Shown piece after piece: positions 14,142 through 18,767 of a DNA stretch of 64,000 bases (positions are counted from its first letter, which is position 1; the number at the start of each line of letters is the position of its first letter). This DNA comes from Candidatus Enterousia sp. (GTDB taxonomy: Bacteria > Pseudomonadota > Alphaproteobacteria > Rs-D84): contig JAZROV010000003.1 of assembly GCA_045648885.1 (NCBI GenBank), forward strand, positions 3,179 to 67,178. The letters are read 5' to 3'. The notes beneath the pieces were generated by a model. That model did not search any database. It saw only the letters and a list, made by a program, of their open reading frames with translations, and had not been told where the DNA came from. The position numbers and the translations under genes were made by a program.

Positions 14142-14717
14142 TTATAATTCATAAACAAATACCCGATGCGGGTATTTTTTATGGTTATAAAGTGTATAAC
14201 CATGACCCAAATCTATTACGCGTGTTGGTTTCTTACCTTTTATCTCGAAATCTAACGATATAATAACGCATATTTTGTGTTTATATTTCAATAATTTTTT
14301 TGTAAAACTTGGCCCCAGATACGCCACCGCAACATCAATTTTTTTATCTGTATTGTTCAACCAATCGAAAGCATCACACCAGATTGTTTTACTGCACGCG
14401 CCCATCATAAAATCAAGAAATTTTGAAACACCCGCCGTGAACGGCATATTTTCAAGTGCCCATACATCTGCATTCGTATTATTTGCTATATCGCGTGCCA
14501 GACCACCAAACCCAGACCCAATTTCACATATATTTTTTGCATTGTCATAATACGTTTTAATCTGGTTTATAACCAAACGATGCAGGTCGCGACTGCTGCC
14601 GACCAGTGGTGGTTGATTTTTAACATGAACACAATAAATATATTCAATAAATTTTATCGCCAAAAAAACATAAAGAACTATTAAAAACACAACCAAAGAA
14701 TACAAAAACACCTGCAC
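14142..14717 (-). CDS. Membrane-anchored class I SAM-dependent methyltransferase (191 aa)
   Basis: N-terminal TM helix (VFLYSLVVFLIVLYVFLAIKFI). Motif I ICEIGSGFGGLARDI. Lies 22 nt downstream of the giant gene on the same strand with RBS AAAGGAAAA. Confidence 0.65.
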   Translation of the reverse strand: MQVFLYSLVVFLIVLYVFLAIKFIEYIYCVHVKNQPPLVGSSRDLHRLVINQIKTYYDNAKNICEIGSGFGGLARDIANNTNADVWALENMPFTAGVSKFLDFMMGACSKTIWCDAFDWLNNTDKKIDVAVAYLGPSFTKKLLKYKHKICVIISLDFEIKGKKPTRVIDLGHGYTLYNHKKYPHRVFVYEL

Positions 14718-14739
14718 TGTGGTTTTCCTTTTGGTTTTA

Positions 14740-17700: not shown

Positions 17701-17823
17701 TGGGGTTTTGAAATGCTGTTTAACCACACCATCAACAATTTTGGCATCTATTTTTATATTCGCAGACACTGGCAATACAAAACAAAAACACGACAAAATA
17801 TAAAACAACAAACGTTTCATCAT
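14740..17823 (-). CDS. Giant (about 1027 aa) Cys-rich secreted/membrane-spanning protein of unknown function
   Basis: Signal peptide MMKRLLFYILSCFCFVLPVSA with RBS GGAGGTG. Cys-rich N-terminal ~440 aa, a central Gly/Ala/Val hydrophobic pair, a Thr-rich linker (SPTTTTTATTAATNTS), a second TM helix (GLVATAAVLGTVAVGGIIGGLVVA) and a ~190 aa C-terminal domain. Confidence 0.8.
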   Translation of the reverse strand: MMKRLLFYILSCFCFVLPVSANIKIDAKIVDGVVKQHFKTPKAQASAIATLNQAAEAGDGTVSASDLWKVCVAGGLDIKKAAYKQKCEEFAYQLIKALGVDYKEVCGKDAGKTGGAEVCEKEMFKDIRVNAAPGAGLSQEYVRVKHNDDTLRCDGKNIRTEKRDDYLKCASANNKAFYEFRFDTLDAFVDDKIKSGIEKGICKIHGSEYGAGAYYCDNTTVAMGTNNSMCYVYGCRTDNEKLCGEINKTARVFGYSGKYNADAKVCEIDVSSVGKAEDLANDFAENGVDSFYFCTNAIQVTNNLSFNDAIKEYLAFEVGVPEHQIDCVKGFRTYTGKGCRTGWINAKDDIIQCSIGDKKVDFVFDDVNEKNKTRRAGGYEGVVCLAADGTFDGSRCETFTEEQCMNLKAKLAATCTDNCDKEVEWKDDACILPNAKTSAQRDKIARYALEAGIVIGAVALTVVTGGGASGVWVVVAHFGTGAMITGAVVKEAAQAKMTWGIYEPFVKKANQCFASPNDTECAERILREDLQTLMSYGDHFLKEEAHALDGIFAKLIERIPKDSQFWQDFINDEDLWNCTDTGCTLKTKHQTWEYVSQVGDALMLAGGLLHIASAIGTYRNTLAALQNRGVMLKNGMGRSKSVTQLVEPVAIEGSTKEMFPIVSNADLYNAGLTTIAGKGANADVVQKLLNAGVKVGDRITIAQAQRLLGVAATTSLNLAPIFGTAIAVMPGHGGDEGEFYIALVDDEKTSNTNQSGGGSVVPGTISDEITDTDDVTDVVSPTTTTTATTAATNTSIADLFKPDTSGLNASQRFRPQKSKNTGLVATAAVLGTVAVGGIIGGLVVASDKNDNKTKAGDVKIDSELEDLMQRTQGSFGSVGNNPLRLKTLPTVVNSNAPIVLINGYPVVLVLYKSRKIPFYMNGISWAPLLGIGNENNYFNVYPTSEKLQNNTKLTAITNALNAGFNPAIVARYNGQVPGAVAFPTAAATALPIINSEFTNGVVQSSNMSDADRRLYNDNYNKIQEILK

Positions 17824-18767
17824 TTTAACACCTCCGTGCAATTTGATGCAACATTTGCAACATCTTTGATTGCCTTGATTTGCGTAGCATTAAACACAGT
17901 TGCCGTTGCAGACGCCGCCGTTGATGCGCCCGCCAAAACATTTGATGCAGTATTTAAATTTTTTTCTCTTTGTTTGCCACCCACAGTATTGTCGTTACGC
18001 GTCGCATCTGTATTCGCCACAGCCGACGTCACAGTTCCCGCCAATCCTGTTGTTGCACCAACAATCGATGATATCGTTGCACCCTTGCCACGAGTATTTA
18101 TTTTTGATATATCAACATAATCAAATTCACGACAGGCGTCATATATCGTTTTTGCTTCATCAACATTTTGACCGGAAATGCGCGCCTGGGTAATAGATGC
18201 TGATAAATTTTTCACAGTCAATCTGCAATTATCTATTTGCGATTGCAAACTATCATCAACACGGTTTTTGTTTGCAATTATCGCACCGGCTACATTCGTT
18301 GCAGTGTTTCCTGCCAACAAACCAGTGCGCCAATTTCCTAAACTTTTTGATTTTTTATTTAACCTGTCTAATTCTGACTGATATTTTTCTATATCTTTTA
18401 CAGCCGATTCATAAGACAAATCAAATTCTTTCTTAAAAGCTTCCGCTTCGGCCACACTTGTATCTGCCGCGTCAGATTTAGCCTGAATTTCGCGTAATTG
18501 TTCCAATAATTTTTCGTATTGTTCCGCTTCTTCATCTGTTGAATATTTAATAATACCAACAACCGTTGCACCCGCGCCAAGGCCCGTTCCAACCCCAGTA
18601 ATCGCAGTATTTATACCCGCCATTTTCTTTAAATCAAGCAAAGCATCATCAATTCCAACACATGCAGTGTATGTCGCGCGCAACGCGTCGTCCAAAGACA
18701 ACACATCACCCCATGCCAACATCGGAGAAAAGATTACAAAAAACAAAGCCAGTTTGGATAAAAACAA
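17820..18767 (-). CDS. Secreted Gly/Ala/Thr-rich coiled-coil protein (about 315 aa)
   Basis: Proposed TTG start at 18767 with RBS GAGGGG, giving the signal peptide (M)FLSKLALFFVIFSPMLAWG. Repeated glycine-zipper-like segments (GVGTGLGAGATVVGII, GLLAGNTATNVAGAII). Its stop overlaps the next gene's ATG in an ATGA. Confidence 0.6.
   Translation of the reverse strand: MFLSKLALFFVIFSPMLAWGDVLSLDDALRATYTACVGIDDALLDLKKMAGINTAITGVGTGLGAGATVVGIIKYSTDEEAEQYEKLLEQLREIQAKSDAADTSVAEAEAFKKEFDLSYESAVKDIEKYQSELDRLNKKSKSLGNWRTGLLAGNTATNVAGAIIANKNRVDDSLQSQIDNCRLTVKNLSASITQARISGQNVDEAKTIYDACREFDYVDISKINTRGKGATISSIVGATTGLAGTVTSAVANTDATRNDNTVGGKQREKNLNTASNVLAGASTAASATATVFNATQIKAIKDVANVASNCTEVLK

Follow-up and report, generated by a model that had tools for sequence, protein, structure and literature searches.

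The DNA analysed here, called the window below, is a 64,000-nucleotide (nt) stretch from Candidatus Enterousia sp. (assembly GCA_045648885.1, contig JAZROV010000003.1), and our subject is a group of three minus-strand genes at positions 14142-18767. Gene 1 (17820-18767), which we call the helper, starts at TTG behind a GAGGGG ribosome-binding site and encodes 315 amino acids (aa). Its TGA stop codon overlaps the ATG start of gene 2 (14740-17823), the giant partner of 1027 aa, in an ATGA at 17820-17823. The methyltransferase-like gene 3 (14142-14717, 191 aa) lies 22 nt beyond the gene 2 stop and starts at GTG, with AAGGA about 10 nt upstream. The positions, overlap and gap reported in the initial annotation were exact to the base. 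In comparison with syntenic orthologues, the ratio of nonsynonymous to synonymous substitution rates (dN/dS, or omega) was 0.09-0.33 for all three genes, which indicates that all three are real. That annotation had grouped them as a three-gene operon. Our analysis strongly confirms a smaller group, the translationally coupled pair of genes 1 and 2, which we take to be the functional unit, a two-gene cassette specific to Candidatus Enterousia and its order.

The two-gene unit and its surroundings

The composition of the unit was assessed by comparison across related genomes. Among 60 relatives searched, gene 1 had matches in 28 of the 36 genus genomes and in the sister family, often in multiple copies, while gene 2 matched in 21 and gene 3 in 13 of the same 36. 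In a first set of loci, the gene 1 homologue was located directly upstream of a gene 2 homologue and overlapped it in every case (9/9). We then recorded 80 further loci with gene 1 homologues from different species; an overlapping downstream open reading frame was present in 79 of them, and 66 of the downstream partners carried a gene 2-type head. The order gyrA-merR-divergent tRNA-Glu-gene 1-gene 2 is kept in three metagenomic orthologous loci.

Apart from the window, gene 3 was found behind gene 2 only in the closest relative, L039, whose gene 2 and gene 3 products are 69% and 71% identical to those of the window. It is missing from the syntenic orthologous loci L041 and L042, where the gene next to gene 2 encodes a convergent HD hydrolase and an unrelated 230-aa protein, respectively, and no gene 3 homologue was found within 6 kb at any of the 80 loci. 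Ten gene 3 homologues occur in other contexts, three of them adjoining the same block of 534-, 276-, 185- and 836-aa genes. Genes 2 and 3 were found together in 6 of the 36 genus genomes, against 7.6 expected if they were independent. The operon claimed at the outset thus holds for the gene 1/gene 2 pair (79/80 loci) but not for gene 3 (0/80 loci, with L039 alone sharing it), and the failure of co-conservation, which the initial annotation had itself named as grounds for abandoning the three-gene grouping, is what we observed for gene 3.

These counts make it extremely improbable that gene 3 methylates the gene 1 or gene 2 protein and that all three work together as one system. The absence from 80 related loci and from L041 and L042, the ten homologues located elsewhere and the chance-level co-occurrence across genomes all argue against such a system. 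Its support comes from the shared strand, from the 22-nt gap, in which no terminator was found, from the closest relative, which keeps the arrangement, and from a gene 3 homologue in genome G016 that adjoins a gene 2-like gene, though divergently. The last case, L052 (G016:C37, 1-5776), is the sole other gene 3 homologue with a gene 2-like neighbour (1514 aa); 645 nt separate these divergent genes, which therefore form no operon. We regard gene 3 as a lineage-specific neighbour that joined the cassette locus in the common ancestor with the closest relative. No role for it in the cassette could be demonstrated, and its co-transcription by read-through is possible in this genome. A weak promoter-like site is located at 14788-14759, within the 3' end of gene 2.

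The description of gene 3 as a methyltransferase with one transmembrane (TM) helix agrees with a single, strongly hydrophobic N-terminal helix (mean Kyte-Doolittle value 2.9) and a GSGxGG motif. The alignment of 12 homologues retained the N-terminal TM helix and showed invariant G67/G69/G71, E89, D115 and AYLGP, with the motifs in canonical class I order. Gene 3 shares with class I (Rossmann-fold) S-adenosylmethionine methyltransferases the motif I GSGxGG, an acidic ALE after strand 2, DAF and AYLGP, although the protein from the window scores below every curated cut-off. Methyltransf_25 matched 6 of the 12 homologues (best E 6.3e-5), and the best PDB matches were spermidine-synthase-type chains (E 1.5e-4). 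The family is small (105 clusters) and lineage-restricted. Gene 3 is thus predicted to encode a membrane-anchored, minimal class I methyltransferase-like enzyme.

The region upstream of gene 1 is short. Its sole conserved feature is an extended -10-like box, TGTAATAAT (18789-18797, minus strand), recognised by its resemblance to the consensus about 10 nt before the GAGGGG of gene 1; it reads TGTTATAAT in the alignment of four orthologous upstream regions. A tRNA-Glu(CTC) gene (18929-19003) lies 161 nt from the gene 1 start on the plus strand and is therefore divergent from gene 1. The Rfam search over the region returned the tRNA only, and a long conserved leader is absent from the locus. At the other end, a hairpin at 14157-14177 (9-bp stem AAATACCCG-ATG-CGGGTATTT, followed by a T run) is located in the final codons of gene 3, where the conserved motif KKYPHR is encoded. 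This hairpin may be a terminator for the convergent plus-strand genes, and possibly for gene 3 too.

The window corresponds to contig C3 of an 836-kb genome that is 94.5% complete; the contig also encodes gyrA, a class I tRNA synthetase, a class A penicillin-binding protein, UvrD and a TolC-type outer-membrane efflux protein. BamA and a DsbA-like protein are encoded in the same genome, which indicates that the organism is diderm and able to oxidise periplasmic cysteines. Relatives of gene 1 come from metagenome-assembled genomes labelled Candidatus Enterousia or Alphaproteobacteria and recovered from the guts of goat, sheep, yak, horse, chicken and human. The order Rs-D84 has been described as uniformly genome-reduced (<1 Mb). 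Its members, Candidatus Enterousia included, have no tricarboxylic acid cycle, respiratory chain or standard nutrient transporters and are presumed to rely on other cells (PMC12306168).

Gene 1, a conserved companion of exported proteins

Signal peptides and topologies in this and the following sections were derived from hydropathy, charge and Cys distribution only. The earlier description of the gene 1 product as a secreted protein with small-residue-rich segments and a coiled coil agrees with our results. An N-terminal, hydrophobic, putative Sec-type leader (read by eye) is followed by four charge-free segments at residues 50-73, 146-168, 231-255 and 270-295. These segments are 23-26 residues long, consist of 57-64% Gly, Ala, Ser and Thr, and are essentially uncharged across the family. 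The family alignment also revealed four conserved cysteines (positions 36, 181, 212 and 310) and invariant Gly, Arg and Thr positions. A charged coiled hairpin occupies residues 74-145 and a basic loop residues 256-269. If the segments span the membrane, the four cysteines would be located on one side and the 74-145 hairpin and the 256-269 loop on the other. The AF2 model is all-helical, with two helices of about 62 residues each (predicted local distance difference test, pLDDT, 76.9; predicted template modelling score, pTM, 0.53). The family comprises at least 1628 clusters at 90% identity, all of them unnamed and without a Pfam domain.

The initial annotation had recognised no described system of this composition, and the searches of Pfam, NCBIfam, PADLOC, PHROGs and PDB sequences were indeed empty or sub-threshold. 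For the three proteins, Pfam, NCBIfam, PADLOC and PHROGs gave sub-threshold matches only (IMD, TIGR04527, a NanM-type methyltransferase and a JetC coiled coil). The PDB sequence searches with single proteins and profiles matched gene 2 only in its low-complexity Pro/Thr linker. The TIGR04527 model describes the two-TM mycoplasma proteins MG_279/MG_280 and aligned over its positions 11-209 of 248 with gene 1 residues 54-297 (E 3.4e-7). Both sequences are rich in small residues, and we rejected membership of gene 1 in this family since the match reached 30 bits against a cut-off of 125 and is probably driven by composition. The literature on MG_279/MG_280 contained nothing relevant that we could find.

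A second comparison concerns the ClyA family and the tripartite alpha-helical pore-forming toxins (HblL1, AhlB, SmhB, MakA), which resemble gene 1 in being exported, in their size (about 300-350 aa) and in their long helical hairpins with hydrophobic segments. Gene 1 might accordingly be the ClyA-like soluble bundle of a binary toxin, its segments flipping out into a pore in a target membrane, with gene 2 as the co-secreted partner or cargo. We consider this very unlikely. The gene 1 protein is indeed predicted to be exported and all-helical, with long hairpins and buried hydrophobic or small-residue segments, and HblL1, AhlB, SmhB and MakA appear among its fold matches. However, none of these matches is significant (Foldseek E 0.17-0.7, TM-score 0.2-0.32), and they rank together with TolC and designed bundles. 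Neither Pfam nor NCBIfam linked gene 1 to the ClyA, HBL or Nhe families, and the PDB profile search was empty. Gene 1 further differs from these toxins in its four charge-free segments and two probable disulfides, and the partners of the gene 1 family are heterogeneous enzymes rather than second pore subunits.

The identity of these partners was established from distant gene 1 paralogues in the genus, which overlap genes that encode other proteins with signal peptides (200-600 aa). Among these partners (L061-L072, L100, L136, L139 and L142), several are exported trypsin-like peptidases (Pfam Trypsin/Trypsin_2), and the one at L142 carries a Tlde1/YkuD domain (Pfam). Tlde1/YkuD is a family of antibacterial effectors that target peptidoglycan. 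The behaviour of gene 1 is thus that of a companion, both general and conserved, of exported proteins. The order is reversed in the sister family f3 (L054-L060), where a small Cys-rich signal-peptide gene comes first and a gene 1-like gene (321-420 aa) second; the genomes of this family contain up to 11 gene 1-like copies apiece.

Gene 2, a modular giant with an exchangeable tail

The domain map proposed for gene 2 (leader, Cys-rich ectodomain, hairpin, Thr linker, second TM helix and C-terminal domain) was reproduced by hydropathy and Cys counts. Residues 1-440 (16504-17823) comprise a putative signal peptide (1-21, within a hydrophobic N-terminus of residues 1-25) and a Cys-rich head, whose 22 cysteines fall within residues 71-430 and are mostly invariant across the family. 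A Gly/Ala-rich double hydrophobic hairpin of the glycine-zipper type, identified by hydropathy at residues 444-489 (16357-16494), is present in all full-length homologues examined. Further cysteines are located at positions 512, 521, 578 and 583. Hydropathy and motif analysis placed a Thr-rich linker followed by a TM helix at residues 791-847 (15283-15453), with the Thr-rich stretch at about 797-810 and the helix, which bears the motif K-x-K-N-T-G-L-V-A-T-A-A-V-L-G...G-G-L-V, at 820-847. Residues 848-1027 (14743-15282) form the Cys-free C-terminal domain, or tail. A gene 1-like domain inside gene 2 was considered and dismissed, since hhalign paired the signal peptides only.

Both genes of the cassette evolve rapidly. 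Full-length gene 2 orthologues are 30-69% identical, and in neighbours with a 94%-identical GyrA the gene 2 and gene 1 products are 52-72% and 65-79% identical, respectively. Nonsynonymous divergence (dN) was 0.03-0.04 for gyrA, 0.15-0.26 for gene 1 and 0.21-0.43 for gene 2, so that gene 2 exceeds gyrA 5-10x. Omega was 0.14-0.24 for gene 2 as a whole and 0.09-0.33 across well-aligned segments; no reliable estimate could be made for the hairpin, linker and TM pieces, owing to their shortness or to saturation. The combination of low omega and high dN indicates that genes 1 and 2 are fast-evolving but constrained. Gene 1 is shown to be the conserved subunit and gene 2 the fast-evolving, modular partner.

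The modularity is located at the C-terminal end. The last 230 residues of 67 giants clustered into 11 tail classes, of which the class found in the window is the commonest (28 giants), followed by a tail with an HExxH motif (24 giants); the nine small classes share the remaining 15, and one of these small classes has a weak DnaJ match. The second TM helix is confined to giants with the tail of the window, and many gene 2 homologues have no C-terminal TM helix. A second gene 2-like gene of this genome, on contig C9 (L028 1430-7252, plus strand), encodes 1940 aa with 40 Cys and an HExxH-type tail (AHEQAHKVD). Some gene 2 tails contain J-domain-like stretches with an HPD motif (L025 4530-8117, DnaJ E 4.8e-4, and L026 3254-8197), and another tail type opens with G[YF]HG[ST]DADIA.

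The Cys distribution bears on where the giant resides. All 28 cysteines of gene 2 fall in the head and middle region, and the tail is Cys-free in every homologue, which fits an exported head and a non-oxidised tail. The two proteins might then form a resident inner-membrane complex, with gene 1 contributing four TM segments and a cytoplasmic coiled hairpin and gene 2 its hairpin and C-terminal TM helix. Such a complex, with disulfide-rich periplasmic and with cytoplasmic domains, would act as a trans-envelope sensor or scaffold and export nothing further. Besides the gene 2 cysteines, it would explain the four conserved cysteines of gene 1 on one side and the basic flanks on the other, the lack of an immunity gene (see below), the strong purifying selection on the tail (omega 0.086, against L039) and the ATGA coupling, which suggests a fixed stoichiometry. 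We nevertheless judge it unlikely, as the partners of gene 1 paralogues include soluble, secreted-type peptidases devoid of a TM helix, the C-terminal TM helix is missing from many gene 2 homologues, and the gene 1 segments are of low hydrophobicity. The rapid divergence of the head also fits pressure from outside the cell better than periplasmic housekeeping.

The tail was characterised by motif, fold and profile searches. Its motifs are LP[FY]Y, W.PLLGIG, GWFN.YP, IINxEFPNGVVQ and LYxxNY. An exhaustive HMMER scan of 1.84 billion representatives recovered it in 42 proteins. In nearly all listed matches it occupies the C-terminal end or a position close to it, and it is nearly always preceded by the helix K-x-K-N-T-a-L-I-A-T-A-A-V-L-G...G-G-L-V. 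The alignment contains no invariant His, Cys, Ser or Asp and one near-invariant Glu. The AF2 model of the tail (pLDDT 91.6, pTM 0.86) consists of one helix, eight strands and then five helices. No match to this fold was found in the PDB (best E 0.22). The BFVD library of viral folds yielded two matches to the fold of the whole domain, both to pieces of giant phage proteins (E 3e-5, probability 1.0, TMq 0.57-0.61), one of which belongs to a protein annotated with a lytic transglycosylase domain.

A divergent member of the tail family led by tblastn to gp038 of Cellulophaga phage phi4:1, a 1957-aa virion protein detected by mass spectrometry, and the gp038 search led on to g067 of the crAss-like Cellulophaga phage phi14:2, whose gene adjoins that of the virion RNA polymerase gp66. 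In hhalign the tail profile matched gp038 at 93.7% (E 1.9e-7) and both phage sequences together at 95.5% (E 1.6e-8, 67 columns), against 0.14% for an unrelated gp038 region used as the negative control. The aligned part is the beta-rich core of the tail, approximately residues 53-118 of the domain, and lies near the C-terminus on the phage side. We observed in gp038 (L154 3892-9765) and g067 (L155 1822-7215), which come from unrelated phages of podovirus type, a common module of about 70 residues, NING..[IL].FY.SSAGT.GK..G.W.P.FG. Neither protein has a Pfam annotation, and the Pfam search was empty for gp038 and for TM-less tail variants. The link to phages was reached solely through the fold search and the divergent family member: phage records searched by tblastn with gene 1, gene 2 and the tail, and plasmid records searched with the tail variant P0174, returned nothing for the window's own sequences, and the tail profile scan of viral contigs was empty. 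On these profile and fold comparisons, the tail core is a remote homologue of a module found in giant phage proteins that are packaged in virions. The g067 protein is reported to occur in virions of phi14:2 together with gp66, which has been proposed to be delivered into the host (doi 10.1101/2020.03.07.982082), and Crassvirus cargo proteins are believed to leave via the tail in a partly unfolded state (PMC10172136).

The likeness to g067 and gp038 is restricted to the beta-rich core. The phages have no counterpart of gene 1 or of the remainder of gene 2, and their module is not preceded by a TM helix, in contrast to the gene 2 tail. The phage giants are packaged in the capsid, whereas gene 2 is chromosomal, Cys-rich and predicted to be exported by Sec. 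We also rejected gene 2 as cargo of the phage-derived particle cluster of this genome; its Sec leader and disulfide-rich head would be incompatible with packaging in the cytoplasm.

Possible effector delivery, a proposed envelope module and meaning for the organism

The exchangeable tails raise the possibility that the cassette delivers polymorphic effectors. The gene 2 head would bind a target, the hairpin and middle region would translocate, and the TM helix with the C-terminal module would be the cargo entering a competitor bacterium or a eukaryote, with gene 1 as the export helper. The relevant model is MafA/MafB(/MafI) of Neisseria, multi-copy modules in which an exported helper, the lipoprotein MafA, is encoded upstream of a larger signal-peptide protein with an exchangeable C-terminal end. 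The cassette resembles them in having a helper upstream, a giant with a conserved front and an exchangeable end, and multiple copies, and gene 2 shares the conserved front and the exchangeable tails (11 classes among 67 giants) with polymorphic toxin systems in general. There is no sequence relation to MafA/MafB, Pfam being blank on genes 1 and 2; gene 1 lacks a lipobox Cys, and the gene 2 tail, unlike MafB, bears its own TM helix, shows no catalytic signature and has no cognate immunity gene corresponding to MafI.

We regard effector delivery as a possible if doubtful explanation. The swappable tails, which include HExxH peptidase-like and J-domain-like types, are consistent with it, as are the coupling of gene 1 paralogues to peptidases and to a Tlde1-type domain, the multi-copy, fast-evolving nature of the family and the relation of the tail core to virion-packaged phage giants. 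A TM-less copy of the tail is also found as a gene of its own (263 aa), 121 nt downstream of one encoding 1686 aa, at a locus adjoining mla genes in another cellular genome (L156 2820-8792). This free-standing, orphan-like tail behind another giant resembles the displaced tail modules of polymorphic systems. On the other hand, no conserved immunity-like gene was found downstream: across 22 loci carrying this tail, the downstream neighbours represent at least 10 unrelated families, several of them convergent, and the wider set of 28 giants agreed. Gene 3 was rejected as an immunity protein because its distribution does not match that of the tail. An invariant residue of catalytic type (His, Cys, Ser or Asp) is missing from the tail, and gene 2 matches no Pfam or NCBIfam family and so has no recognisable toxin or trafficking domain (TPS, LXG, PAAR, Rhs or the MafB N-terminal domain). 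The two commonest of the 11 tail classes account for 78% of the giants, far below classical polymorphism.

The reading that we favour, with a confidence somewhat short of an even chance, is that genes 1 and 2 constitute a helper-partner module of the cell envelope. In its favour are the coupling of the two genes, the varied exported partners of gene 1 paralogues, the tail classes and the free-standing tail copy, the BamA and DsbA-like proteins together with the Cys distribution, the rapid divergence under purifying selection, the phage link of the tail and the independence of gene 3. Gene 1 would be a membrane-inserting helical protein, its four small-residue segments forming a bundle in the membrane and its cysteines facing the periplasm. 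It would receive co-translated gene 2 at a ratio of 1:1, either holding it at the envelope or passing it outward. Gene 2 would serve as a surface or contact protein, with a head that binds a target. Its tail would be an anchor or signalling end in the cytoplasm of the producing cell, or the portion that comes to lie across a target membrane; this choice between an anchor and a target-crossing part is suggested by the core shared with virion-packaged phage giants, a set in which one protein is proposed to enter the host.

Several observations weigh against the envelope module. The gene 1 segments are weakly hydrophobic (mean Kyte-Doolittle value 0.5-1.2) and may pack as a soluble bundle instead of spanning a membrane. 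The gene 1 model is of moderate confidence, as its pLDDT and pTM values indicate, and the PDB fold search with it gave no significant match (E >=0.07, TM-score <=0.4). No gene 1 homologue lies beside the giant on contig C9, and gene 1 is single-copy in this genome; either the coupling is not obligatory or the single gene 1 works in trans. No route over the outer membrane was identified. The homology to phages spans only about 67 columns of the 180-residue tail, and the functions suggested here for all these proteins are inferred.

A bolder version of the helper-partner module, which we advance tentatively and consider unlikely, is that genes 1 and 2 represent an undescribed Sec-dependent system by which ultra-small gut Alphaproteobacteria present or deliver proteins. 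Gene 1 would provide a glycine-zipper conduit or platform for any exoprotein translationally coupled to it, and the phage-type module of gene 2, a TM helix plus domain, would place the tail across the membrane of another cell.

For annotation, the analysis replaces a misleading three-gene grouping by a real unit of two genes. The tail provides a confident fold without a solved counterpart and a first cellular relative for an uncharacterised module from giant phage proteins that are packaged in virions, one of them from a crAss-like phage. With at least 1628 helper clusters, a fixed chromosomal site, a rate of change 5-10x that of gyrA and no curated relative, the cassette family is a prime candidate for the means by which these bacteria touch or exploit their surroundings. 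If the delivery system proves true, it would be a contact organ that metabolically dependent cells direct toward their partners or competitors.

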